This document shows positions 13 to 19,126 of a stretch of 24,000 bases of DNA, piece after piece. Position 1 is the stretch's first letter. Each line of letters starts with the position of its first letter. Position numbers and translations under genes: made by a program. The notes under the pieces are model-generated. The model was not told where the DNA came from. It worked only from the letters and a program-made list of their open reading frames with translations, and did not search any database. Source of the DNA: an uncultured Gammaproteobacteria bacterium (GTDB lineage: Bacteria; Pseudomonadota; Gammaproteobacteria; Thiohalobacterales; Thiohalobacteraceae); contig CAVPOO010000009.1 of NCBI GenBank assembly GCA_963707015.1, forward strand, positions 1 through 24,000, given 5' to 3'.

Positions 13-3000
13 GTGAAAAACCAAAGAGTAATCCAGGTCTTCGTCGGCTCACCGGGTGACGTGGCTGAGGAACGCAGGCGCGCTTTCGAAGTTATCGAAC
101 GCATCAACCGCGACGCGCTGCTGCCGCCGGGCTGGCGCTTCGAGGGGGTGGGTTGGGATCAGACGCATTACCCCAAGCTCGCCTGGCTTTCGCCGCAGGA
201 AGCGATCAATGAGGGCATCTCGCGGCCGGGCGATTGCGACATTGCCGTGTTCATATTCTGGAAACGCGTGGGTACGCCCTTGCCGCCGGGGAGGTTTACC
301 GAAAACGGCGCTGGACCGGAGGCTACCGGCAGCCTGTGGGAGTTTTACGATGCGATGGAGTCGGCCAAGAAGCCCTGGGTCTCGGTCTATCGCTGTGAGC
401 GCACGCCCGAGATGACTGAAAAAGATTTCGAAGATCCCGTCGGGTTTGGTACACAGGTTAAGGCCGTTAAGGACTTATTCCTGGGTTTTCAGGATGGCGA
501 GGGCCGGTACCGCGCCGGCTACCAGGGTTACGCCGATGCGAATGATTTCGCCCAGCACCTCGAACAGGATCTGAAGTCATTCATCAAGCGCCAGACATCG
601 CCTGAAGCCAAAGCCGCGGACACCCGCAAAGCGAAGGCCCCGCAGACGGAGCGCGTGCCTGCCGCCTATCTGCAGCGCCTCAAAGAGAGCGTTGCGCGCG
701 TCGAGCTGCTGGGCCTGGATCTCAAGGAAAGTATCACCAACGGTTTACCGCAGGTCTATGTGCCCGCAGTGACGACCAGTGCGACGGAGAAACCCGAGGC
801 TGACCAGCCGTTCGAGCGCGATCGGCGCGAGCTTATCCTGCACCGCCTGGGTGAAAGCTCGCTCTATCTGCCAGGCGATCCGGGGAGCGGTAAGTCCACC
901 TTCAGCCAGTGGGTGGCCTATGTGGTCGCTCACGGTGCCGTCCCACCGCATGAAATTCCACCGCCCGAGGAGCTGCAGGAACGGCTGCCGGACAGCCTGC
1001 TGGGCCGGCTGCCTGTCCTGATCCGGTTGCGCGATTTCTGGGGGCATATGGGTTGCGAGCCTGAGCAGGGTGACTGGCGTCAACGCGAGCTGGAGACGGC
1101 GATCGTCCATTGGCTGGACAAGACGCAACCCTTTGGTCTGACCGCAAGCAGTTTCGAACGCAATCTGGGCGAGGGCAAGCTGTTGCTGCTGCTGGACGGC
1201 GTGGACGAAGTGCCTGAGGAACACAACATCGGTGGCCGCACAGTCTATCCCCGCCATGCGCTGCTCACCGGGCTGGCCGACGCCTTGCCGCAATGGCAGC
1301 AACAAGGCAACCGCATCCTGGTTACCAGTCGGCCCTATGGCCTGCGGGCCGCCGAACGTAATCGGCTCAAGCTGCCGGAAGCCGGTTTGCTGCCGCTGGA
1401 CGAGGATCTGCAGCGCTTGTTCACGGCACGCTGGTACGCGGCTGCCGACCACGCCAATTGGGAGCGCCATGCGAACGGCCTGGCCGAGGAGTTGCGCAAT
1501 AGAGAGGAGCTCTACGAGCTCCGGCGCAATCCGCTACTGCTGACCGCGCTGTGCGTCAAGTACAAGGAGGGCAAGCGCCTGCCGCAGGATATCTACCACC
1601 TCTACGACAGCGTGGTGAATCAGGTCCTGTTCAATCGCTTCCGCGGCAGCGACCGGGAGCGTACCCGGGTACGCTGGCGGCTGGAGGCCGTGGCGCTTGG
1701 GATGCATTATGGTATTGATGACGAATCCGTGCGTCCTGCGCCGCTGGCTTCCGTCGATCTGGACGAACTGGATCGCATCCTCGCCCGCTACGCCGAACAG
1801 AACCCCGGCACCGAGGGCGGGGCCGCCCTGGTGTTGGAACGGCGCGATGAGTTGCTGGAGAGGTCCGGACTGTTACTTGCCCCGGGGCGAAAAGAAGGCC
1901 GAGTTCTATCACCAGGACTTTCGCGACTACCTGGCGGCCGAGCGCTGGGCGCGCGAGCAGCGCTCGCTGGAATCCGCGTTACAGGGCTACGGGGCGAATC
2001 GGGACTGGCGGCGTATGCTCGGTTTTCTGTTCGCCAAGGTGATCGAATCGTCGGGTGGGGTCGACCGACCGTTGCGGGCGCTGGCAGGGCTCAAGGAAAA
2101 GACGTCACGAGACGCGCTGGCAAGTGAGGCGGCCGCGGCCGTGCTGCTGGCGGATTGTCTGGAGATCGCGGCGGGGAAGGCGCGCGAAGGTGGTCTCGCT
2201 GGTGACTGGGTCGACCGCTTTCGGCGGATTTGCACAGACAGTCTGGACGTTGTGCCTGCTGCGGTCGACCGCAACGCCCTGTTTCTGGCCCTCGGCCGGC
2301 TCGGTTGGGACAACCGCCGGGTGTCGGGCTGGACGCGCAGGGCAGGCCCGGTATCGTCTGGCTACCGGTGCCGAACGAGGAGGCCCCGGGTTCTACATTG
2401 CCCAGTATCCGGTCACCCAGGCACAGTTTCAGGCCTTTATCGATGCTGAGGATGGCTATGCGGACCCGCGCTGGTGGAAAGACTTCGACGAGCGCAAGGG
2501 GAATCCATGGAAACCCACCTGGCCGGAACCGAACGCGCCGCGTACCGATGTCGACTGGTTCGAGGCGGTCGCTTTCTGTCGCTGGCTGACTCATTGCGGG
2601 CACGCCCCCACCGCTGGCTGGCAGATCCTGCTGCCCACCGACGAACAGTGGCGACAGGCCTATGTCGGTGAGGGGAAGAGCGAATTTCCCTGGACGGGGG
2701 AGCCTGACCCGAATCGACACGCCAATTATCGGGATACGGGCCTGAAACGCACCAGTGCCGTGGGGGTGTTCCCTGACGGCGTGGCCAGCTCAGGCGCTCT
2801 GGACATGGCCGGTAACGTCTGGGAGTGGTGTCTTGAAAAGTACGACTTGGACACAGGTAGGGTTGGACCTGCCATGATCGATGCGGCGAATGATCGGCGC
2901 GTGTTGCGCGGCGGGTCCTGGTCCAACGCTCCAGGCGACCTGCGTTCCGCCCCTCGCTTCGGGCGCGACCCCGTCGACCGCCGCTACTACCTCGGTTTTC

Positions 3001-3038
3001 GGTTGGTTTGCCGCCCCCCGTCTTCCACTGATCACTGA
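13..3038 (+). pseudogene. DGR target 1: NLR-like STAND protein (N-terminal TIR-like/DUF4062-like domain, NACHT P-loop NTPase, C-terminal FGE-sulfatase/C-type-lectin-fold domain carrying VR1), broken by three frameshifts
   Basis: The N-terminus VIQVFVGSPGDVAEER...DIAVFIFWKRVGTP resembles Rossmann/TIR-like domains fused to STAND NTPases (assignment from memory). Walker A is GDPGSGKST (nt 874-900) and Walker B is LLLLLDGVDEV. The NACHT-typical EFYHQDFRDYLAA motif appears only in frame 2 after ~1885. GVGLDAQGRPGIVWLPVP appears only in frame 1, and the FGE domain (FYIAQYPVTQAQF...MAGNVWEW...RGGSW...GFRLVCRP) only in frame 3, ending at the stop at 3036-3038. The GTG start at 13 is uncertain because the frame is open to the window edge. 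Confidence 0.8.
2904..3019 (+). repeat. DGR variable repeat VR1 (3' end of target 1)
   Basis: Colinear with the reverse complement of 8452-8568. By hand alignment, 21 of 29 TR adenines in the central tract are substituted and no C/G/T positions in that tract are changed. The A-free 3' segment TCGGTTTTCGGTTGGTTTGCCGCCC is identical to TR. Confidence 0.9.
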
Positions 3039-3061
3039 ATCCTGAGTGCTGTTCACTGATC
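3030..3061. other. Imperfect hairpin just downstream of VR1 (GATCACTGAA / 12-nt loop / TTCACTGATC, one C-C mismatch), conserved downstream of VR2 at 8720-8751
   Basis: The arm sequences are identical at both VR flanks and the loops differ at 3 positions. The hairpin overlaps the target 1 stop and the RT stop codon. Confidence 0.35.
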
Positions 3062-3508
3062 GGCCGCGCGCTTGTTGCGTGCGGCCAGGCGCTGGAAAAC
3101 GGTCTTTCGCAGTCCCCAGGTGTCCGCAAACCGGACGTGGTTTACCCAGCCGCTCACTGACGCATCAAGTTCTGCAAAGGTAATTTGCCCCTCGTGCCAG
3201 GCGTCGTAGCGTTGCGCCAGATGGCGGGTCGCATACCGTGCCTTGCGCGCCTTGAGTTTGCGGTGGTCGGGATAGACCACAAAGCCCAACCAGGGCGTCC
3301 CGCAGCCGGTTGGCGCGACCTGGCAGGCGGACTGATGAATGCTCAGTCGATAGCGTGCGAGGCGATCGATGAGGGCTTCTTTCCAGTACCATAGCTGCGT
3401 CTTATCGTCACTGAAAAGCGCGAAGTCATCGACGTAACGCAGGTATGCGCTACAGCCCAGCTCGCGTTTCACGAAGTGATCGAACGGGTCGAGATAGCAG
3501 TTCGACCA
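3053..3508 (-). pseudogene. DGR reverse transcriptase, C-terminal fragment (palm YxDD motif plus thumb)
   Basis: Translation is WSNCYLDPFDHFVKRELGCSAYLRYVDDFALFSDD... through to the stop at 3053-3055. It joins in frame to the N-terminal fragment at 7275-7898 once 3772 nt are removed. Confidence 0.88.
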
Positions 3509-3528
3509 ATATGGCGTGCACTTCATAT

Positions 3529-3564
3529 TGGTCGGTATGTTGGGTTTATGAATATGTGGCGTAC
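3529..3564. repeat. Left terminal inverted repeat of the RIT-like element
   Basis: TGGTCGGTATGTTGGGTTTATGAATATGTGGCGTAC is the reverse complement of 7245-7280 with one mismatch. Confidence 0.9.
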
Positions 3565-3680
3565 GCTACCCATAGACGGCAGCATGCCTTGGGAGATCAA
3601 GTCGTTTTACTTGTGAAGCCGATTGGTTGACTCGACATATTGCTGCCACCTTTTGAACGGTGAACGCGAAGGAGGGCAGT

Positions 3681-4925
3681 ATGCCAAAGACTTACTTCAA
3701 GTCCGCCCCTACAGGGCCACACTCTGACACTGAAGCTGCCGGCCATTATCTGGCGGCTTTCCGACAGTGGCTTGAGCAGAGTGGTTACCGGCCGGAAACG
3801 ATACGCGGCCGCTTGCGCGGAGCAGCTCAGTTTGTCACCTGGGCCGAGGGGAGCGGCGAGGCGCTCGCGCAGTTTGACGAGGTGCTCCTTAGCGCCTTCG
3901 GACGATACTTGGCCCACCGCGGCCAGTTGCAGTACCCAAACGGTATCCGCACGGTTCGATTCCTGGGGGCTCGGCTCTTTGTCACGTTCTTAGCCGCGCA
4001 GGGGATCACGCCACCGTCGAGCAAGGTTTCGGCCACCCCCTCAATGCCTGGACTACTTGTCAAATTTTGCCACTGGATGCGGACGCAGCGCGGTGTGAGT
4101 GAGCCGACGCTTAGCAACTACACCCCCATCCTGCGGGACTTGCTGGAGACCCTCGGTGACCAAGCCGAGCTGTTCACGGCAAAGCGACTGCGCGAGTTTG
4201 TCCTAAATCACGTACATCGCCATGGCAAAGGCCGAGCGAAGGCGGTAGTCACAGCGGTGCGCATGTTTGCTCGCTTTCTAGGCGTCATCGGCTGGTGCGA
4301 GCCAGGATTGGAGCACGCGATTCCCACCATTGCGGAATGGCGCCTGCGGTCATTGCCGCGTTATCTGCCCACGGCGACGGTCGAGCACATCATTGCCGCT
4401 TGTGACGACACAACGCCTCAGGGTGTCCGCGACAAGGCGATGATCCTGCTGATGGCAAGGCTTGGTTTGAGGGCAGGTGATGTGGCGGGGCTGCGCTTTA
4501 CTGATCTGGACTGGCAAGACGGCACGCTGATGGTCATGGGTAAGAATCGCCGTCAGACACGACTGCCACTGCCGCAAGAGGTCGGCGATGCCCTGCTGCA
4601 CTATCTGGAATCGGCACGGCCAACAACGCCGTGCAAGCACGTGTTTATCACTGCCCGAGCCCCGCTGAAGCCTGTCACCAGACAGGCTGTCGGTCGCACG
4701 GCTGCCCGGGCGATCCAACGCGCTGGCATCGATGCGCCGTCGCTTGGCTCCCATGTCTTGCGCCACTCGGCGGCTACCACCATGCTCCGCCAAGGCGTTT
4801 CCCTGCAAGCAATTGGTGAAGTGTTGCGCCATGCCTCGCCAGAGACCACTGCCCACTACGCTAAAGTCGACCAAGCGCTGCTCAGGCAAGTGGTTGTACC
4901 CTGGCCGGAGGTGACGTCATGTTAA
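3681..4925 (+). CDS. Tyrosine recombinase/integrase, first gene of the trio (RitA position)
   Basis: An AAGGAGGG RBS sits before ATG 3681. Motifs are RLGLRAGDVAGLRFTDLDW and SHVLRHSAATTMLRQG...LRHASPETTAHYAKVD (R..HxxR..Y catalytic signature). Confidence 0.85.
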   Translation: MPKTYFKSAPTGPHSDTEAAGHYLAAFRQWLEQSGYRPETIRGRLRGAAQFVTWAEGSGEALAQFDEVLLSAFGRYLAHRGQLQYPNGIRTVRFLGARLFVTFLAAQGITPPSSKVSATPSMPGLLVKFCHWMRTQRGVSEPTLSNYTPILRDLLETLGDQAELFTAKRLREFVLNHVHRHGKGRAKAVVTAVRMFARFLGVIGWCEPGLEHAIPTIAEWRLRSLPRYLPTATVEHIIAACDDTTPQGVRDKAMILLMARLGLRAGDVAGLRFTDLDWQDGTLMVMGKNRRQTRLPLPQEVGDALLHYLESARPTTPCKHVFITARAPLKPVTRQAVGRTAARAIQRAGIDAPSLGSHVLRHSAATTMLRQGVSLQAIGEVLRHASPETTAHYAKVDQALLRQVVVPWPEVTSC

Positions 4926-5830
4926 TGCAAGCGGTTGAGACCTATCTGGCGGTGCGCCGTGCCGCTGACTTCGAACTCGAGGCGGCGGAGCGGTACTTGC
5001 GGGACTTTGCCCGCTTTGCCGGCGTCCACGGGGACCGCCACGTTTCCGCGAAAACGGCGATCGCGTGGGCCGGACTGGGCTCCTCGGAGATGCAGCGCGG
5101 CAACCGCTTACAGATAGTGATTCGCTTTGCGCGTTTTGCCCACTCCGATGACCCTCGCCACGAAATTCCGCCAGCACGCGTGTTCTGTCGGCGCTACTGT
5201 CGGCCGACGCCCTATATCTTCAGCCGATCAGAAATCGAGACGCTGCTAATCCAGGCCACGCGCTTGGGTTCACCCGGATCTTTTCGCTCGCACATGTACA
5301 CGATCCTTTTCAGTCTGCTGGTTGTTACCGGATTGCGGATCTCCGAGGCCTTGGCTTTGCGCTTCCAAGATGTGACCGAGGATGGTTTGGTGATTCGGCA
5401 GACCAAATTCCGTAAGAGCCGACTCGTGCCGGTGCATGAGACCACCGCTGCCGCGCTTCAGCGCTACTTGGTCAAACGAAACGAGGTGGCGCTTGATGAC
5501 GACCACCTGTTCGTCTCTCGGCAGCGCCACCCATTGAGTCACCACACCGTCCGAAAGACTTTCTATCAACTGTTAGCGGCTGCTGCCATTCCCCGCCGGC
5601 CAGGGGGTCCGCACCCACGGCTAATGGACTTTCGTCATACGTTTGCGACAAACGCGCTAATGACTTGTCCCGATGACCGGGACGCCATTCGCTCCCACAT
5701 GCTGGCGCTAAGCACTTACATGGGGCATGCCCGTGTCAAAAACACCTTCTGGTATCTGCAGAGTACGCCGCAGCTGCTGGGCGATATTGCCAGCGCTTGC
5801 GAGGACCGCCTCGGGAGGACCGACTCATGA
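4919..5830 (+). CDS. Tyrosine recombinase/integrase, second gene of the trio (RitB position)
   Basis: Motifs are VTGLRISEALALRFQDV, DFRHTFATNAL and YMGHARVKNTFWYL. The start codon overlaps the upstream stop. Confidence 0.85.
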   Translation: MLMQAVETYLAVRRAADFELEAAERYLRDFARFAGVHGDRHVSAKTAIAWAGLGSSEMQRGNRLQIVIRFARFAHSDDPRHEIPPARVFCRRYCRPTPYIFSRSEIETLLIQATRLGSPGSFRSHMYTILFSLLVVTGLRISEALALRFQDVTEDGLVIRQTKFRKSRLVPVHETTAAALQRYLVKRNEVALDDDHLFVSRQRHPLSHHTVRKTFYQLLAAAAIPRRPGGPHPRLMDFRHTFATNALMTCPDDRDAIRSHMLALSTYMGHARVKNTFWYLQSTPQLLGDIASACEDRLGRTDS

Positions 5831-7200
5831 CATCGATCGCACCGCACATTTCCGCATTTCTACGCGAGCACCTCCCTGTGCAACAGGGGGCAAGCGCACA
5901 CACTTGTGATAGCTACGCCTATGCGTTTCAGCTGCTGTTTGAATACACCAGCCAGCGCTATCAGGTCACGCCCTCAGCGTTGTACCTGGAGCAAATCGAC
6001 GCCCCGTTGGTGATGGATTTTCTGCACTACCTCGAAACCGAGCGACACAACAGCCCCCAGACCCGAAATGCGCGCTTGGTAGCGATCAAATCCTTCATGC
6101 GCTTTATCGAGCATCGGGTGCCCGCACTGCTAGAACACAGCCGGCGTGTGCTTGCCATTCCTATGAAGCGGACCGATACACGCTTGGTGAATTACTTGTC
6201 GGCGGGGGAAATGCAGGCGATTCTGAACGCGCCCGATCTCCAGAGGCGGGACGGCATCCGCGATCGCGCCATGCTCCATCTCTGCTTTGCCGCCGCTCTG
6301 CGTGTGTCAGAGTTGGTCAGTTTGCAGCTGCCCGCTGTAGAGCTCCATCCAACACCGCTTGTCCGGGTGCAGGGGAAAGGCCGCAGAGAGCGCGCACTTC
6401 CGCTATGGAAACAAACGGCCGTTGATCTGAGCGCCTGGCTGGCGGTGCGCGGCGATGCACCGACACCCGAGCTTTTTCTCAACGCACGTGGTTTGCCGAT
6501 AACCCGCTTCGGCTTCGAGTACATCCTGCGTAAACACGTCCGGGCGGCAGCAATGGGTTGCCCCTCGCTCAACAACAAGCGTATCTCTCCCCACGTGTTG
6601 AGACACTATGTGGCCTCCCGGACTATGTGGGGTAAAGTCTTCACATTCGACGGCAATTCGCAGAATTTCAGTGGATTACCTCTGCAAGCGATGCGTGTGT
6701 AGACGACATAAATTGGTGCGTTTCTCGAGCGCTTCTTCGACACTTGCCCACCGCCCGGAAAGAAGTGAGGTCCAATAGATACGAGATTCATAGGGTTCTG
6801 GACCATCGGCCCTTGTCATCTCGGTGCAACCCTCGGCTTTGTGTCTTCCGAAACAGCGCCGGACTATGTCGCTGCCGCCGAGCGCATTCAGCGGAAAAAC
6901 AGGGTCTGAAACGAAGTACGCTACATAGTCCGGGAGGCCACATAGTGTCTCCTATGTAGCCGGCTACATAGGCGCCACTCAAGCGCCATGCTGGTGCTGC
7001 AGGCCACAGGAGATCTCCGCAAGGTTTCGCTCTGGTTGGGACATGCCAGTATGCAAACTACGGAGATCTACTTGCGTGCAGATCCCACAGAGAAACTTAA
7101 CGCCATTGAAGCGGTACTACCACCGACGCTCAGACGAGGTAAATTCCGGCCACCGGATAAGCTGATCGCCAGCCTAAGGGGGGACACCGAAATATGTTGA
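5827..7200 (+). pseudogene. Tyrosine recombinase, third gene of the trio (RitC position), interrupted by a 372-bp insertion
   Basis: The N-terminal part ends ...ISPHVL at 6600. The C-terminal part resumes at 6973 in the same frame (RHSSAMLVLQATGDLRKVSLWLGHASMQTTEIYLRAD). The intervening 6601-6972 contains stop codons. Removing it gives a 333-aa protein. Confidence 0.85.
6601..6972. mobile_element. MITE-like non-autonomous insertion with 28-bp perfect terminal inverted repeats plus an adjacent 22-bp perfect palindrome
   Basis: AGACACTATGTGGCCTCCCGGACTATGT (6601-6628) is the exact reverse complement of 6923-6950. CCTATGTAGCCGGCTACATAGG (6951-6972) is self-complementary. No convincing ORF lies inside, and the element splits the recombinase HVLRH box. 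Confidence 0.7.
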
Positions 7201-7244
7201 GTCATCGGAGCCGAAATCCCACTGAAACCGGCTCGAACAACAAT

Positions 7245-7280
7245 GTACACCACATATTCATAAACCCAACATACCGACCA
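7245..7280. repeat. Right terminal inverted repeat of the RIT-like element
   Basis: GTACACCACATATTCATAAACCCAACATACCGACCA is the reverse complement of 3529-3564. Confidence 0.9.
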
Positions 7281-7898
7281 GAACTGAGAGGTGAGGTTTC
7301 CGATCGGCAGGCCGCGCGGTCGACACGCGGCCAACAGGTCATCGCCCGGGAACCACCGCATTCGATACTCCTGCTCCAATACACCCTGACCGGATGCGAC
7401 GATTTTTTCAATCAGTGGCGCGACGGAAGCGTCCGGCAGCCTGCGGGTCAGCGTTCGCAGCAGGATCTCGTGGTCGATCGCGGCGAAGTGCTGAACGACG
7501 TCGGCGCGCAGCACATAGGGATAGCGCTGCGCGAAGCGCTGAAATCGATCGATTGCGCGGTGCGTTCCTTTACCGCACCGGTTGGCGAAGCTGTCGTCAA
7601 TGAAGCCGCGTTCGAACAAGGGTTCGATCACGTTACACAGCGCGTGGTGCACCACCCGATCGCGAAACGGTGCGGCGCTGATCTTGCGCCGTTTCGGCTC
7701 CTGAATATGGAAGTGCTTATACCCGCCGGGTAGATAAGTACCGGTTTCCAGTTCAGCCTGCAGGACAAGCAGCTCATCGGCGAGCCTCGCCTCCAGCCGT
7801 GCGGTGCTCGATTTGCCGCGTTTCCCCTTTGCGGCCTTGCGAAAAGCCAGCAGCAGGTTGTCCCATTGAATGACTTGATGCAACAGGGAGTCTGTCAT
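7275..7898 (-). pseudogene. DGR reverse transcriptase, N-terminal fragment (RT motifs 1-4)
   Basis: Translation is MTDSLLHQVIQWDNLLLAFRKA...KRRKISAAPFRDRVVHHAL...LRADVVQHFAAIDH...RGLPIGNLTSQFWS. The (I/L)GxxxSQ motif is the DGR-clade hallmark. The ORF then reads into the RIT inverted repeat. Confidence 0.9.
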
Positions 7899-8259
7899 GG
7901 CCGAGCCACTCGTAATTCAAAGCCGAATGTTCGATCTGTTGGTGTGGTTGTTACCCAAAGCGGAGCAATTCCCCAAGGCCTACCGATTCACGCTGACCCA
8001 CAGACTAATGAATGCCGCCCTGGATCTTCAGGATGCCCTGGCCGAGGCGGAGACCAGCCGTGGCCAAGTCAGGCGTCGGGCGCTGTCAGCCGCGGACCGG
8101 CATCTTGCCCGATTACGGATCTACTTGCGGCTGGCACACCATTGGCAGTGGCTGAGCAGTGGTCAGTATGAACACGTCAGCCGTATGGTGCTGGAAATCG
8201 GGCGCTTGCTCGGCGGCTGGCTGAGAGCCGAGCAGCGGGGGATGGGCGGCTCCGGGTAA
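7897..8259 (+). CDS. avd: Avd-like accessory variability determinant (four-helix-bundle, 23S rRNA IVS protein family)
   Basis: The 120-aa product has ...LLPKAEQFPKAYRFTLTHRL...ADRHLARLRIYLRLAH...LEIGRLLGGWLR, which resembles the bAvd pattern. Its ATG overlaps the RT ATG head-to-head (CATG at 7896-7899). Confidence 0.8.
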   Translation: MAEPLVIQSRMFDLLVWLLPKAEQFPKAYRFTLTHRLMNAALDLQDALAEAETSRGQVRRRALSAADRHLARLRIYLRLAHHWQWLSSGQYEHVSRMVLEIGRLLGGWLRAEQRGMGGSG

Positions 8260-8451
8260 ACAGGACCGAGGGAGCCGCCCGCTTTGCTATGCGCCCGAGG
8301 CAGAACCTGCGGACGGGACACGCCTGCGCCATCTTTCATGATGCCTGCCTCGGCCCGCAACCCGTGAGCGGCGGACATTACCGGAAGCTGTACAGGCTCG
8401 TAAGTCCGTACAGCCCGCCCTGCGATAGGCTGCAGGGCCAGGTGGCGATAG

Positions 8452-8568
8452 ATGTGGGCGGCAAACCAACCGAAAACCGATGTTGTTGTTGCGGTTGTCG
8501 GGGTTGTTCCTGTTGCGATTGGCGGAACGCAGGTTGTCTGGATTGTTGTTCCAGGACCCGCCGCGCAA
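8452..8568 (-). repeat. DGR template repeat (TR)
   Basis: The minus strand reads ...[37 protein letters not shown] with 29 adenines, mostly in AAC codons, in the central tract. It is colinear with VR1 and VR2, and all tract differences fall at these adenines. Confidence 0.9.
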
Positions 8569-8663
8569 AACGCGTCGTGCCAAAAACCAGGCGGCCCCAC
8601 GGTAGGCCCCATCAATGAGGCTTTCCGCGCCATGATGTTGCCGTAGTTTGGCTGATGAGTAAA

Positions 8664-8699
8664 CCAAAAAAATCGCGAGCGGGGCGCTGCGCGCCCCGC
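8664..8699 (-). terminator. Rho-independent-type terminator between target 2/VR2 and TR
   Basis: The GC hairpin GCGGGGCGC-(GCA)-GCGCCCCGC is followed on the minus strand by TCGCGATTTTTTT. Confidence 0.6.
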
Positions 8700-8742
8700 C
8701 ACACGCCGCTGCCGCGGCGTATCAGTGAACAGCAACCAGGGT

Positions 8743-11501
8743 TCAGTGATCAATGGAAGAATGGGGGCGGCAAACCAACCGAAAACCGATGAAGCTGCCG
8801 CGGACGCCGGGGTAGTCCCCGCCGCGAGCGGCGGAACGCAGGAGGTCTGGATCGCCTTCCAGGACCCGCCGCGCCAAACGCGTCGGTCGCAATCGCCGCT
8901 GTCTTCCTCCAGCCAGGCGCGCCCATCCTCGGGTGCATCGGTATAGCTTTCGTGCCAGCAGTCCTCGACCCATTCCCAGACATTGCCCGCCATGTCGTGG
9001 AGGCCGAAGTCATTGGGCGGTGTTTTTCCCACCGGCCAAGTGCGACCTCCACTGTTGTCTGAAAACCACGCGTAATTCTCGGCGGCCGCTTCATCGTTGC
9101 CCCAGTACCAAGGTGTCTCGCTTCTGGCACGCGCGGCGTACTCCCATTCGGCCTCGCTCGGCAGACCGCAGGTGAGCCCGTCGGTTGGGTCTGACAGCGC
9201 TTGTGCATAGGCGCGTGCCTCATCCCAACTCACATTGATGACAGGGCGGTCGCCGCGACCCCAGTTCTCGTCCTCTGGCAGGCGTTCACCTTTGCTGAGC
9301 GCATAGGCATCATATTGGGCGAAGGTGACCTCGTGTTTTGAGATGTAGAATTCCTGCAGGCAGACCTCGTGCGGTGGCTCTTCATCCGGGGCACCGCTAC
9401 CTTTCGGCGAGCCCATTTGGAAGCAGTCGGAAGCTTTGTCAGGGGGAAGCTTGACGAGCGTCGGCCTATCCGGCCAATCGACCAAAAGGCGCCAGTGGAC
9501 GATCACTGTGGACCAATCCGCCTCAGCCGTCGTTGCGTCCCCCTGACGGCGTTTCAGCCACAACGCCCCTTCGGCAAGGAACCCGCCCACCAGCAGCACC
9601 AGCGCCAGCAAGAAGACAGTCAAGCGCAGGTTGCGTTTCTTTTGCGACACGCTGGCATCGAGATAGGCCAGGGTCTCGCTATCAGCTCCGGGACGGTGCG
9701 CCGCGAACTTGCGCAGTTCGCGGCCACGGGCCAGCGGGACGGTGTCCGGGTCCTTATGCCAGGCGCTGGCCTGTTGCTCCAGGCGGGTGCGGGTTGCCAG
9801 GAAATCTGTGTGCTCGATCCGCTTCCAGAGCGTCGGCCAGTAGGGTTCGCCTTTGGGATTGGTACGCAAAAGGGTTTCATGGATCAGGTCCACCTGGTCG
9901 TCGTCCCGGTTCTCGGACTCCGCGGGCGAGATCAGCACCAGGCGCACCGGAGCGCTTTCCTGCGCGCTCTCCTCCGGACCCGGGTGCCCGGAAAGTCGTT
10001 CCAGTATGGCCTCGCCGGGCTCACCGCCACCGGCGCTGGCTACCGCCTGGCGCCGGCTGATGCTGCGGCGGGCGTTGACGGTGTTGATGCCCGGCTCCAC
10101 CAGGGCTAGCAGCAGCCGCAGCGCTGGTTCCTTGCTTTGGTCACCGAGCCGTACCAGCAGACTGTCGGCGCTGCTGGCGAGTGCGCCACCCAGGCCGCCG
10201 ACCGTCTTGTAACGGGCGCGCTGCAGCACGCCGTCCGTGCCGGCGTCGTCGCACAGCAGGCGTAACAGGTTACTGACCAGCGGCAGTGCACCCGGCTCGT
10301 TACGGGCTTCGTCGATGATGTCCTCGGACAGTTGATCATCGCTGTACCGCAGGCCGGCCAGTTCCACGCTGCGCAGCACGATATCGCGCAGGCCGGCCTC
10401 GGTCACGGGCAGCAACTCATAATGGGCAGCGTTGTTGCGCCGTGCGTTCAAGCCGGGTGCGGTCTCGAACTGGCCGAGGAAATCGCTGCGCAGGGTGGTG
10501 ACGAGGTACAGGGGAAGATCATGGTTGTCGATCGCCTCGGCCAGGAGCTGATCGAAGCGTTGCCGCTCGGCTACCTTGTCACGGGTCAGGGTGAAAAGCT
10601 CCTCCAGCTGGTCCACGACCAGCAGCGGGAGCTGTTTCCGGCCTGCCGGCACGCATTCGGCGAACAGATGGGCGAGGCGAAAGTCCGTGTCACGCAGGCG
10701 CTGTTCGATACGCTCCGTCGGTTGCTTGCAGGCTCTGGCCAGGACCGCTGCCAGAGCGAAGAGGGGCGAGCGGCCGGGACGCATGACGCCCAACACCCGC
10801 AGACTTACATCAGTCGCCCCGAGATCGAGCCAGCCATTTTCGAGCGCCGGGATCAAACCGGCCCGGAGCAGGGATGACTTGCCCACACCGCTGTTGCCCT
10901 CGATGCGCAGCCAGCGAATCCGCCCGCCGTCGGCCTGCCGCTGGCTGAACTTGTCCAGCGCCGCGAGCAGATCGGTATGGCGACCGAAGAAAAAGGCCTG
11001 GTGCTCGCGCTCGAACGGTGCAAGACCGGGGAACGGACAGCGCCCCAGCTCGGGTGGCAGTTGCGGCTTACGGTATTCGCGGAACAGATCGGTGCGCAGC
11101 GCCGTGGCCAGCGAGGCGATCTGTGCGGCGTCTCGCGCGTCCTCGAGGCGATGGAACTGGAACAGGCTCAGGAAGGGCGGAACCCGATCATCGGGCGTAT
11201 CGTCCAGCAACACCGGGACGATCGGCAGGCGTGCCCTGGCGCTGCGGCTGAAGTGCCGCGACAAGGCTACACCGACTTCCGCCTGTATCCAGCCCGACAC
11301 GCCCTGCTGGCCGATCAGGACCAGGAAGGCCGCGCAATCTTTCAACTTGGCCTGCAGGACATCCTGCCACTGCGGCCCCAGCGGGATGTCGGCATCCCAC
11401 CACACGGTAAGGCCCGCGCCCTGCAGCGACTCGACAATGGCAGCCGTTGTGCCCTTATCGGCGTGGGCGTAGCTGACGAAGATGCTCGGTGGGGCCGACA
11501 T
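8743..11501 (-). CDS. DGR target 2: TIR domain + P-loop STAND NTPase + single transmembrane helix + FGE-sulfatase/C-type-lectin-fold domain carrying VR2 (frameshifted within VR2)
   Basis: The TIR domain reads IFVSYAHADK...WWDADIPLG...AAFLVLIG. Walker A is EGNSGVGKSS (nt 10875-10898) and Walker B is LLVVDQLEE. The TM helix LRLTVFLLALVLLVGGFLAEGALWL lies at nt 9555-9629. The FGE domain reads FQMGSP...HEVTFAQYDAY...MAGNVWEWVED...RGGSW. After the 1-nt deletion the proper C-terminus [32 protein letters not shown] lies in another frame and ends at 8743. Confidence 0.85.
8761..8876 (-). repeat. DGR variable repeat VR2 (3' end of target 2), with a 1-nt deletion relative to TR
   Basis: By hand alignment, 20 of 29 TR adenines are substituted. 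One base, the C of the first AAC codon, is missing between 8856 and 8857. The IMH-like A-free segment is identical to TR. Confidence 0.9.
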
Positions 11502-12124: not shown

Positions 12125-13138
12125 TTAGCCGAAGGCGCGTGTCACGTCGAACGCCTCCTGTCGCTTGAGCATGTGGTAGCAGGCCCGAGCCAGCTTGTTG
12201 GCGACCGCCTTCTTGGCAACCAGAATGTGGCTTTTTGCCTGCTTACGCTGGTAGTAACGTTTGATCTGTGGACTCCAGATGGCGCCATAATGCGCAGCCT
12301 CCATAAAGGCCCAGGCCAGGTATTTGTTGCCGTTCTTCTTGTTGCCCTGGCCCTTGTACTTGCCGTTGCTAAGTTTCTCGGATTTCACACAACGGGCATA
12401 GGAGGTATAGTGGCCGGGACTGGCAAAGCGTTGGATCGTGCCGGTCTCCAGGGCGATGGTGGATCCCAGGGCGGGGCCCACGCCCGGGATGCTTTGCAGC
12501 AAGCGGTAGCCCTCGCGTGGCGTGAGCTGTTTCTGGAGTTCACGCTCAATCTGGGTAATCGCCTCATCCAGCCAACGCCGGGCCTGGTGCGTAATCTGGC
12601 CACCCAGCAAAATAGGCGCTTCCAGGTAAGTCGCCAGCTGATCGCTCTCGAGCTTTTTGAGCGCATTGGCGCTCAGTCGCACGCCGCTATGGCGCGCAAT
12701 CAAACTTTGCAGGCTCATGTGATGCAGGGTCTTCTGCCTCACCAGCAGCAAACGTCGACGCAGCAAGTCACGCAGTGCACGTTCTTCCTTTGGATAGATA
12801 TACCCGGTCGGCAGAATGCCCAGTCGCAACAGATGGGCTAACTGCCGTGCATCCGAGAAGTCGTTGCTATACTTCAGTCCCGCATACTGGGGCATCGCGC
12901 CCGTATGCGCTAAGTGCACCTGGAAACCGGCGTCCATCAGCCCATCCACCAGCCAATACCAGTTATACGTGGACTCCACCACACACCCCGCCAACTCCGC
13001 CTGATACGTTCGCAACACGCCAATAATTATCGCCAGATCATTGGGTAACCGCTTCTCGTAGATCGTATTATCGTTCTCATCCAATATCGCAACCACGCTA
13101 TTATTGGAATGTAAGTCGATTCCGCAATACAGTGTCAT
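12125..13138 (-). CDS. IS110-family transposase (DEDD recombinase)
   Basis: The product runs from MTLYCGIDLHSNN at the N-terminus to ...LQSIPGVGPALGSTIALETG...RFASPGHYTSYARC...GNKYLAWAF..., the typical IS110/IS1111 family layout. The ORF is an intact 337 aa with an AAGGAG RBS. Confidence 0.9.
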   Translation of the reverse strand: MTLYCGIDLHSNNSVVAILDENDNTIYEKRLPNDLAIIIGVLRTYQAELAGCVVESTYNWYWLVDGLMDAGFQVHLAHTGAMPQYAGLKYSNDFSDARQLAHLLRLGILPTGYIYPKEERALRDLLRRRLLLVRQKTLHHMSLQSLIARHSGVRLSANALKKLESDQLATYLEAPILLGGQITHQARRWLDEAITQIERELQKQLTPREGYRLLQSIPGVGPALGSTIALETGTIQRFASPGHYTSYARCVKSEKLSNGKYKGQGNKKNGNKYLAWAFMEAAHYGAIWSPQIKRYYQRKQAKSHILVAKKAVANKLARACYHMLKRQEAFDVTRAFG

Positions 13139-13206: not shown

Positions 13207-13259
13207 GCTAGAGGATTATCAGAGGGGAATGGCCTTACTTGGGCGGCTCCCTAATCAAT

Positions 13260-13388
13260 GTAGGGTGGGTTAGGCACGCCGTTTGTGCCGTAACCCACCG
13301 GATGTGCCGGCAGGCACTCATTAAAAAATGCGTTGTGTTGCTCTGCAACGCCTGGTGGGTTACGCAAAAAGCGCCAACTCGCCCTTAC
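13260..13388. repeat. REP/MITE-like ~129-bp element, copy a
   Basis: The sequence is GTAGGGTGGGTTAGGCACGCC...GCCGTAACCCACCGG...CGCCTGGTGGGTTACGCAAAAAGCGCCAACTCGCCCTTAC. It is near-identical to 18971-19099 and its ends are inverted (GTAGGGTGGGTTAG / CTAACCCACCCTAC-like). Confidence 0.8.
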
Positions 13389-17412: not shown

Positions 17413-17460
17413 GCTTCGCACCGCCTGGTGGGTTACGCAAAAAACCCTAACTCACCCTAC
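17413..17460. repeat. REP/MITE-like element, partial copy b (right half only)
   Basis: GCTTCGCACCGCCTGGTGGGTTACGCAAAAAACCCTAACTCACCCTAC matches the right halves of copies a and c. Confidence 0.75.
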
Positions 17461-17543
17461 ATTTCGACTTAAGTCAGTGGCATTCGGGGCGGAGGGAATA
17501 AGTCATAAGCCTCTGTCCTTTTTTTAGTTCAAGGAGGTAGGCA

Positions 17544-18926: not shown

Positions 18927-18970
18927 CATGCTGCGGCACGGCTTTTGTGCCGGTGTGAACCACGATCGAG

Positions 18971-19099
18971 GTAGGGTTGGTCAGGCACGCCGTGTGTGCC
19001 GTAACCCACCGGCTGTGCCGGCAGGCACTCCCTCAGGGAACGCGTTGTGTTGCTTCGCAACGCCTGGTGGGTTACGCAAAAAACGCTAACCCACCCTAC
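18971..19099. repeat. REP/MITE-like ~129-bp element, copy c
   Basis: Near-identical to 13260-13388. It lies immediately upstream of the permease start. Confidence 0.8.
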
Positions 19100-19126
19100 G
19101 TTAATTCACGATACCCTCGGAAGCCT

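Follow-up and report, generated by a model that had tools for sequence, protein, structure and literature searches.

The 24,000-nt stretch of DNA analyzed here (the window) contains a DGR whose reverse transcriptase (RT) gene lies in two pieces, 3772 nt apart. What separates the two pieces, how could it have come to lie there, and what does it mean for the DGR?

A DGR with a divided reverse transcriptase gene

The components of the DGR are as follows.

2895–3016, plus strand: variable repeat 1 (VR1), at the 3' end of an FGE-sulfatase-fold target gene (2055–3038)
3053–3508, minus strand: C-terminal part of the RT (WSNCYLDPF...YVDD...stop), including the left target hexamer
7281–7898, minus strand: N-terminal part of the RT (M...GLPIGNLTSQF), preceding the insert in the RT reading direction
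7897–8259, plus strand: accessory protein Avd (Pfam match to bAvd, E = 3.5e-20)
8456–8577, minus strand: template repeat (TR)
8761–8885, minus strand: variable repeat 2 (VR2), in a TIR-nSTAND1-FGE target gene

The hallmarks of a DGR are present: an RVT_1 RT with the motif GLPIGNLTSQ, Avd, and adenine-specific differences between TR and VRs. VR1 and TR differ by 23 mismatches, 22 of them at TR adenines. VR2 has 22 substitutions, 21 at TR adenines, as well as a 1-nt deletion, and contains a frameshift. This DGR is genuine and was formerly active.

The RT gene occupies the minus strand, and the ORF called for its N-terminal part (7068–7898) runs on into the inserted DNA. Excising positions 3509–7280 (3772 nt) in silico yields a 357-aa RT in frame, with one Pfam RVT_1 match (residues 69–272) that crosses the junction at residue 206/207. 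The first-pass annotation of this DNA had described an RT precisely split by a recombinase-in-trio (RIT) element, and the rejoined protein bears this out. It had also considered that RT homologues might naturally lack the rejoined sequence. They do not: GNLTSQFW[S/A]N is uninterrupted in 102 of 120 homologues, so intact relatives exist and the rejoined RT sequence is the natural one. Of 120 close RT homologues, a single one has the insertion signature. Both RT/RIT junctions recur in other, independent metagenome assemblies at 98–100% identity, the left one in L004 and L005 and the right one in L045 (L-numbers denote the related contigs compared). The exact rejoined RT was not found in a 15-billion-protein collection, and a search for an empty site of the window element returned none. 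With its RT gene split, the DGR is now very probably disabled, as the annotation had presumed.

Anatomy of the inserted element

The segment at 3509–7280 is a RIT transposable element inserted in the RT gene of this formerly active DGR. This copy, hereafter the window RIT, and its flanking hexamers comprise the following features.

3503–3508: left (outer) target hexamer CGACCA, antisense to the Trp-Ser codons (TGG TCG) of the RT
3509–3528: 20-bp mini-palindrome ATATG-GCGTGCACTT-CATAT, at the ritA-proximal end
3529–3534: inner hexamer TGGTCG, part of the element
3535–3564: left inverted repeat (IR) proper, with boxes GTATGTTGGG at 3535 and ATATGTGGCG at 3552, 17 nt apart
3681–4925, plus strand: ritA, tyrosine recombinase, 414 aa
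4919–5830, plus strand: ritB, tyrosine recombinase, 303 aa, with a 7-nt overlap with ritA
5827–6606, plus strand: 5' part of ritC, to ...SPHVLRH, with a 4-nt overlap with ritB
6607–6978: nested 366-bp noncoding RIT-type miniature element with its second hexamer, interrupting ritC
6979–7200, plus strand: 3' part of ritC (SSAMLVLQ...TTEIY...)
7245–7274: right IR proper
7275–7280: right target hexamer CGACCA

The insertion thus reads target hexamer, 20-bp mini-palindrome, inner hexamer, 30-bp IR, ritA-ritB-ritC, 30-bp IR, target hexamer. The mini-palindrome consists of two inverted half sites resembling recombinase boxes. When the hexamers are counted, the inverted repeat (3529–3564 and 7245–7280) measures 36 nt with one mismatch. 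The annotation correctly placed CGACCA at both junctions, but it treated the hexamer as part of the inverted repeat, and only the inner copy, TGGTCG, belongs to the element. If the ends are joined, the right end plus 3509–3513 is complementary to 3524–3564 at 40 of 41 positions across the spacer GCGTGCACTT, which reproduces the 41-bp arm with a single mismatch reported earlier. This near-perfect palindrome of the joined ends is particular to the window RIT; L001, L026, and L037 each have an inner hexamer that does not complement the flanking one.

All three rit products carry a Phage_integrase domain (Pfam; RitC with the nested insert removed), and the matches cover the catalytic domain. Their best NCBIfam matches are XerC/XerD models, which score below the cut-off. 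Inspection of the translations by eye points to the putative catalytic motifs HVLRH and TTAHY in RitA, FRHT and TFWY in RitB, and HVLRH and TTEIY in rejoined RitC, whose gene is physically interrupted. Joining the two ritC parts gives a 333-aa protein with 96% identity to the intact RitC of L037. The window RIT encodes no transposase other than tyrosine recombinases. At E ≤ 1e-30, 4235 homologues of RitA were identified. Wherever a retrieved contig extends past ritA, more integrase genes follow directly downstream, and sufficiently long contigs show the full trio. Plasmid relatives, including the pHG1 trios and genes annotated as y4rB/y4rC, show 40–48% identity. Evidence of mobility comes from close relatives in three RT genes and from the P0017 RitA, which is found on 16 contigs with differing flanks.

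RIT elements were reportedly first described in Cupriavidus metallidurans CH34, in work attributed to Van Houdt (2009/2012) and Ricker (2013). They comprise overlapping ritA/B/C genes in about 3.5 kb, bounded by an IR of about 30 bp and a palindrome that overlaps it, and insert inside other genes, transposase genes included (PMC3414803); RitA and RitC carry extra structural features (PMC8138268). The window RIT shares with the CH34 type its gene trio, size, IR with palindrome, and insertion within a gene. Its long RitA comes first, followed by RitB and RitC, with short overlaps (the criterion being 4–8 bp), an IR above the minimum of about 30 bp, and a length that comes to 3400 nt once the nested 372 nt are subtracted. 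It is a further RIT element, of a known kind and mechanistically informative. RIT ends have been reported as variable and their binding sites as unconvincing, with target specificity, movement, and empty-site formation listed as untested (PMC3414803, PMC10214605). Here, by comparison, a hexamer, a mini-palindrome, a second hexamer, and the IR can be told apart at the ends, 6-bp target repeats are present, and one lineage is specialized on DGR RT genes, although priority on both points is uncertain.

The interruption of ritC, absent from the first-pass annotation, is itself a small RIT-like structure. Its IRs lie at 6607–6634 and 6917–6944, followed by an inner hexamer GTGTCT (6945–6950) and a 22-bp palindrome (6951–6972), so that it shares the two-box geometry and terminal palindrome of RITs. 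Its termini match over 35 nt with 2 mismatches (the 28-nt IR, the flanking hexamer, and one further base), and its flanking hexamers, AGACAC (6601–6606) and CGCCAC (6973–6978), are identical at 4 of 6 positions. Searches for protein similarity and for matches in plasmids or Rfam returned nothing for the nested element, which may be a MITE-like nonautonomous derivative. With ritC broken, the window RIT is probably unable to move without help, and the excision ability implied in the annotation is doubtful. The element is thus probably immobile by itself, with the DGR staying off.

Flanking hexamers and the route of movement

RIT elements are widespread and their mode of movement is poorly understood; the window RIT and its relatives offer testable clues in the form of natural before-and-after data, which point to a 6-bp crossover unit and a definable target consensus. 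Most of the relatives come from metagenome assemblies, in which inverted repeats may mislead assemblers. Perfect 6-bp direct repeats flank all six simple insertions in which both junctions are readable, and all six hexamers differ (CGACCA, GCTCCA, TGGGCC, CGTATC, CGCTAC, and CAGATC). The first three belong to the window RIT, L001, and L037, respectively. The L001 and L037 elements also lie in RT genes, between ...NLTSQFW[S/A] and NCYL..., at the same codon as the window RIT. In each of these three, the hexamer at both junctions corresponds to that RT's own Trp-Ser/Ala codons; the hexamer is therefore derived from the target and is neither a fixed core nor part of the IR.

The inner hexamer behaves differently. 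In both the window RIT and L001 it is the window RIT's target hexamer in reverse complement, in L037 (read in the window orientation) it is the L001 target hexamer in reverse complement, and L032 and L026 show the same reciprocity. The internal hexamer thus seems to preserve the previous insertion site, and TGGTCG in the window RIT can be read as the fossil of an earlier Trp-Ser target. The mini-palindrome is on the ritA side in the window RIT, L001, L029, and L035, on the ritC side in L026, L031, L033, and L037, and at both ends, with inverted outer flanks, in the P0017 family, L029, and L031. Flanking repeats are imperfect in four cases (L019 with 5/6, pTiS4 and the nested element with 4/6 each, and L039 with 3/6), each of which has an inner hexamer exactly complementary to the one at the end that carries only an IR. 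Exchange from a palindromic joined end, proceeding without full homology, would be expected to leave such a trace.

These comparisons suggest, with a probability of roughly 0.7, that RITs move by tyrosine-recombinase exchange over a 6-bp overlap via an end-joined form, the window copy now being defective. The Rit recombinases would join both ends so that a single hexamer separates the right IR from the mini-palindrome, and the joined end would hold six box-like sites and two candidate crossover hexamers around the mini-palindrome. Strand exchange with the target over the 6-bp overlap would then place the hexamer on both sides of the insert. Because the joined ends are nearly palindromic, the hexamer on either side of the mini-palindrome might be used. 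Use of the far one would turn the previous site's hexamer internal and flip the gene block relative to the mini-palindrome, which would account for both the inner fossil hexamer and the two gene orientations. Strict 6-bp homology alone cannot explain how a lineage gains a new hexamer, and lack of homology alone cannot explain perfect repeats in six of six insertions, so that the scheme has to invoke mismatch repair or a two-step history. A further assumption is needed for the forms with two palindromes, either insertion beside a solo mini-palindrome site or recombination within one.

The proposed architecture resembles Xer/dif and Cre/loxP in having inverted boxes around a 6–8-bp crossover region, although the RIT joined end would hold six boxes and two candidate crossover hexamers, and the RIT target half-sites are only weakly box-like. 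In Tn916/CTnDOT, exchange likewise spans about 6–7 bp, homology is dispensable, and donor bases remain at a junction; these, however, are large, conjugative, and equipped with a single integrase and Xis, and the coupling sequence at one end normally differs from that at the other. Tn554, SE (strand-biased circularizing integrative elements), and GInt also combine several tyrosine recombinases with a target preference, and their 6-bp junction unit may come from the previous site (PMC10214605), much as in the RITs with imperfect hexamers. They use two catalytic recombinases with accessory proteins rather than three recombinases, have different hexamers at the two junctions where RITs have identical ones in all six simple insertions, and lack the mini-palindrome and internal fossil hexamer. 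Carry-over of the Tn554/SE type was rejected for the window RIT, whose hexamers are identical, as they are in the five other simple insertions; a carry-over-like pattern occurs only in L019, L039, pTiS4, and the nested element.

The annotation had favored tyrosine-recombinase integration through a circle. The comparative data indirectly favor a joined-ends route; the circle itself is inferred, and a search for the excised-circle junction of the window RIT found none. A mobilome study likewise found RIT coverage but no circle junction; the RIT DNA was exonuclease-protected, and hairpins were suggested (PMC5737581). A single-strand route is thus conceivable, in which a strand folds on its long IRs into a hairpin looped by the mini-palindrome, with inner and end hexamers paired, and recombination proceeds as in an integron attC or a strand-biased circularizing element, with replication completing the event. 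The ends do form a 41-bp stem, the inner hexamer exactly complements the IR-side hexamer in 8 of 12 readable copies (including the symmetric L029 and L031), and SE elements use strand-biased copy-out (PMC10214605). Yet L001, L026, and L037 have noncomplementary inner hexamers and perfect flanking repeats nonetheless, and the comparative data do not distinguish strands; we regard this route as rather unlikely. Also unlikely is a true target-site duplication, with a 6-bp staggered cut, end joining, and gap filling but no hexamer-carrying joined intermediate. It would produce the perfect, target-identical repeats of the six simple insertions, but only tyrosine recombinases are encoded, and it leaves unexplained both an inner hexamer equal to another insertion's target hexamer and the 5/6, 4/6, and 4/6 repeats with exactly complementary inner hexamers. 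A phage-style attachment core, in which CGACCA is constant and insertion occurs only at an identical chromosomal core, is highly improbable. In the window RIT the hexamer stands at both junctions and its complement at the left IR's inner edge, making the joined site palindromic, and this suggested such a core to the first-pass annotation, but L001 and L037 have other hexamers at both junctions while keeping different inner ones, and six insertions with six hexamers leave no room for a shared CGACCA. What survives of the proposed attP-type site is the 6-bp region, which behaves as a crossover or duplication region.

Repeated use of one site in DGR reverse transcriptase genes

The target flanks share RTAnnnRTT, and the target can be described as 5'-RTAnnnRTT followed by 6 bp, a short and asymmetric site. 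In DGR RT genes it is the antisense of the Asn-Cys-Tyr codons and the preceding Trp-Ser/Ala, directly after GNLTSQF. In genes for Mu/IS21-type transposases, related RIT lineages use this pattern at Asn-x-Tyr codons, and the flanks there map to profile position 25 of Pfam Mu-transpos_C_2.

It is very doubtful that the RT-targeting lineage is a dedicated parasite or co-opted switch of DGR RT genes, moving between them at one codon and keeping its previous hosts in the inner hexamer, with copies whose recombinases are intact toggling hypermutation by precise excision. A domesticated reversible switch, in which precise excision turns DGR mutagenesis on and reinsertion turns it off, seems less probable still. 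Precise excision would restore the RT frame, and the lineage reuses one site, its fossil hexamers all being Trp-Ser codons. However, ritC is broken, VR2 is frameshifted, the signature is rare among close RT homologues, and no empty allele was found. The sister lineages that insert in transposase genes at the same DNA pattern point to a sequence preference and not to function. The sigK skin and nifD elements also lie inside a coding gene that precise excision restores, but programmed excision is not evidenced for the window RIT, whose recombinase set is defective.

The locus of the window RIT shares synteny with that of L001 over the target gene, RT, and Avd. Over conserved four-fold codons, third-position identity of the rit genes to those of the window RIT is 70–73% for L001 and about 90% for L037, whereas for the RT and Avd genes it is 39–42% (L001) and 52% (L037). 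A single ancient insertion inherited vertically with the DGR, as synteny and the shared codon might suggest, is barely credible, because it would require several-fold slower synonymous evolution in the rit genes than in their neighbors, the flanking hexamers differ in parallel at both junctions, and the L037 gene block has the opposite orientation. Because the RT genes are far more diverged than the RITs, the three insertions are independent. These three, the only RT insertions known, document a route to the shutdown of DGR hypermutation by repeated site-specific insertion of mobile elements in the RT gene.

A reverse transcriptase split by a RIT element

The first-pass annotation had described a diversity-generating retroelement (DGR) whose reverse transcriptase (RT) gene is precisely split by a recombinase-in-trio (RIT) element and can be rejoined in frame, and this description holds. 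Removal of positions 3509-7280 (3772 nt) yields a 357-aa ORF, the join of the two halves lies within a single Pfam RVT_1 match, and both junctions were found again in independent metagenome assemblies at 98-100% identity (the left in contigs L004 and L005, the right in L045). The annotation had also proposed looking for intact RT alleles. Among the 120 best homologues of the C-terminal part, 102 carry GNLTSQFW[S/A]N uninterrupted; therefore, the rejoined RT represents the natural sequence. The insert belongs to the RIT family. Its genes overlap by 7 and 4 nt, and overlapping rit genes are a published trait of RIT elements (PMC3414803).

Features of the split RT gene, the RIT element and the DGR repeats
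2895-3016: variable repeat VR1, 3' end of the FGE-sulfatase-fold gene
3053-3508, minus strand: RT C-terminal part, starting WSNCYLDPF...
3503-3508 and 7275-7280: hexamer CGACCA, at both junctions
3681-4925: ritA, tyrosine recombinase
4919-5830: ritB, tyrosine recombinase
5827-6606 and 6979-7200: ritC, tyrosine recombinase, interrupted
6607-6978: nested miniature element (366 bp, non-coding, with RIT-style ends), within ritC, at Arg-His of HxLRH
7281-7898, minus strand: RT N-terminal part, ending ...GLPIGNLTSQF
8456-8577: template repeat (TR), matching two variable repeats
8761-8885: variable repeat VR2, within the TIR-nSTAND1-FGE gene

The inverted repeats (IRs) of the element (3529-3564 and 7245-7280) are 36 nt long with one mismatch. 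When the right end plus ATATG is compared with 3524-3564, 40 of 41 positions are complementary across the spacer GCGTGCACTT; the near-palindromic joined ends and the CGACCA copies thus stand as first annotated. Looking up the exact sequences of the rejoined RT and RitC led to a related locus, L037, and returned no empty-site allele; no circle junction was found. The mini-palindrome, an ATATG-N10-CATAT module at one RIT end, supplies the RT C-terminal part with an in-frame ATG (3509-3526, minus strand; MKCTPYWSNCYL...), for which we saw no clear ribosome-binding site. L037 and a second relative, L001, have the identical geometry and hence this ATG as well.

Separate insertions at one RT codon

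A genome scan with RitA returned only one close relative. L001, from a gammaproteobacterial MAG (82% RitA identity), carries a RIT at the same RT codon as the window copy, with GCTCCA at both junctions. In L037, whose Rit proteins are 93-96% identical, the RIT also occupies this codon (...SQFWA|NCYL...) and both junctions carry TGGGCC; the gene block is inverted, and the mini-palindrome still lies on the Asn-Cys-Tyr side. Divergence was measured as identity at third positions of conserved four-fold codons. Between the window and L001 it is 70-73% for the rit genes and 39-42% for RT and the accessory protein Avd; between the window and L037 it is about 90% for the rit genes and 52% for RT (N-terminal part only). 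The RIT elements are thus much younger than their host RT genes, and the three copies are separate insertions.

In all three, the flanking hexamer consists of the Trp-Ser or Trp-Ala codons of the interrupted RT gene itself, showing that the 6-bp repeats derive from the target. CGACCA had been read as a shared core, with a comparison of the flanks of other copies as the check. It is not a fixed core, as the hexamers differ at one and the same RT codon and each matches the codons of its own RT. Since a fixed core was looked for and not found, the window copy is not a phage-type fixed-core integrating element. Neither the IR nor the RT-RIT junction was matched in scans of viral contigs, and read-through-tail searches for further RIT-split RTs returned only proteins of near-query length (<=275 aa and <=85 aa), with no new cases.

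Three other kinds of RT locus were rejected as RIT insertions. L020 holds an unrelated small element with CTAG repeats beside a deleted RT. In L021, an RT C-terminal remnant (5790-5830) begins within the RIT target hexamer (CTG TCG AAC TGC) and the N-terminal part is missing, which could be a RIT-associated rearrangement. In L022 (5509-6552) and L023 (1149-2192), the closest RT homologue (80% identity), unrelated DNA with a GIY-YIG gene replaces the N-terminal half, and the RIT target site is intact.

End anatomy and a proposed route of insertion

A metagenome scan for the mini-palindrome pattern recovered 12 further RITs, which, taken with additional contigs, show a common plan: outer hexamer, 20-bp mini-palindrome, inner hexamer, IR, genes, IR, hexamer. 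The mini-palindrome lies at either end of the gene block, depending on the copy. A perfect 6-bp direct repeat flanks all six simple insertions with both junctions readable, and all six repeats are different. The flank adjoining the mini-palindrome fits RTAnnnRTT, which in the window copy, L001 and L037 is the antisense of Asn-Cys-Tyr. In eight other elements, this flank corresponds to Asn-Arg/Asp-Tyr of the Mu-transposase C-terminal domain (profile position 25), in agreement with earlier reports of RITs inserted in Tn6049-type transposase genes (PMC3414803).

When the ends of distant plasmid RITs were parsed, they were clear only in pTiS4; pNK6c was ambiguous, the RH AL1 plasmid RIT yielded only a 55-bp IR, and the pHG1 and pBN3 copies showed no flanking IR pair. 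The pTiS4 RIT has a hexamer/mini-palindrome/hexamer module at one end and perfect 748-bp terminal IRs that include a DUF736 gene (L043, 3167-3914 and 7173-7920). Some RITs (L010-L016, L029, L031) carry mini-palindromes at both ends in direct orientation, with inverted hexamers and an inverted outer flank of about 20 bp; this outer flank resembles the usual target arm. These forms fit no tested model cleanly and are only loosely explained.

Flanking and inner hexamers of the three RT insertions, in window orientation with the mini-palindrome on the left (the L037 hexamers TGGGCC, flanking, and GCTCCA, inner, become GGCCCA and TGGAGC)
Window copy: flanking CGACCA; inner TGGTCG, reverse complement of its own target hexamer
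L001: flanking GCTCCA; inner TGGTCG, reverse complement of the window copy's target hexamer
L037: flanking GGCCCA; inner TGGAGC, reverse complement of L001's target hexamer

The inner hexamer looks like a fossil of an earlier site. The surrounding IRs are identical between the window copy and L037 around different inner hexamers, so the hexamer was swapped as a unit rather than point-mutated. Similarly, for two sister elements in transposase genes, the inner GATACG of L032 is the reverse complement of the L026 target CGTATC, and the L026 inner GAAGCC matches the reverse complement of the L032 target at 5/6 positions. Imperfect flanking hexamers occur in L019 (5/6), the nested element (4/6), pTiS4 (4/6) and L039 (3/6), and in all four the inner hexamer exactly complements the IR-side hexamer. 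Inversion in place, from the inner site to the right end, was rejected as the source of the complementary inner hexamer: on paper it would leave unequal flanks, and those of simple insertions are equal.

We propose instead that the Rit proteins exchange strands across 6 bp, using an end-joined, probably circular intermediate in which one donor hexamer would sit next to the mini-palindrome. Two usable crossover positions on the joined ends may be used alternately. Such an intermediate would explain the 6-bp repeat, the fossil hexamer and both gene-block orientations, and imperfect flanks with a complementary inner hexamer are the product expected when a palindromic joined end recombines with a target that is not fully homologous. 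The predicted joined-end sequence is ...CCCAACATAC-NNNNNN-ATATG..., and the predicted empty site is ...GCAGTTCGACCAGAACTGAG....

The kind of element is already known; the literature consulted describes variable ends for RITs and treats the way they move as untested (PMC3414803, PMC10214605, PMC5737581). The window copy resembles Tn554/SE elements in the 6-bp unit but differs from them in its recombinase set and in its equal hexamers (PMC10214605). The present case is of value for its hints at the mechanism and for a RIT lineage with repeated insertions in DGR RT genes.

The nested element and the surrounding DGR

The ritC gene of the window copy is itself broken, by 372 nt (6607-6978) that follow ...SPHVLRH. 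Without them, RitC is 333 aa long and 96% and 89% identical to the intact L037 RitC and to L001 RitC, respectively. Each 28-nt IR of the nested element contains a pair of CTATGTGG boxes; their 17-nt spacing is also that of the boxes in the large RIT. Its inner hexamer is GTGTCT and it has a perfect 22-bp palindrome; its flanks, AGACAC and CGCCAC, differ at 2/6 positions and both encode Arg-His. Rfam and plasmid searches with this element were negative. In L009 (7400-7440), a RIT of another family lies inside ritC of a P0017-type RIT, directly after ...SPHVLRH, at the same codon position.

The DGR at this locus is genuine. Pfam bAvd matches Avd (7897-8259; E=3.5e-20), and the mismatches of the variable repeats are concentrated on TR adenines (22/23 in VR1 and 21/23 in VR2), indicating that the DGR worked in the past. 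VR2 has a frame-shifting 1-nt deletion relative to TR, so the DGR looks to be decaying; the TIR-nSTAND1-FGE target gene is frameshifted because of it. We infer, as the first-pass annotation presumed, that the insertion silenced the DGR. The Avd (+) and RT (-) start codons stand back to back, overlapping at 7896-7899, an unusual, divergent arrangement for a DGR. TR lies downstream of Avd in the opposite sense, and the minus-strand ORF at 8163-11501 with the TIR-nSTAND1-FGE target gene continues through TR. A NACHT ORF (13-2127) and the FGE-sulfatase/VR1 ORF (2055-3038, plus strand) overlap in different frames and may be one frameshifted STAND-type target gene. Downstream of the DGR lie an IS110-family transposase gene (12125-13138, minus strand) and dispersed 50-130-bp repeats of 85-92% identity (13254-13385 with 18965-19097, and 17413-17463 with 19052-19102).
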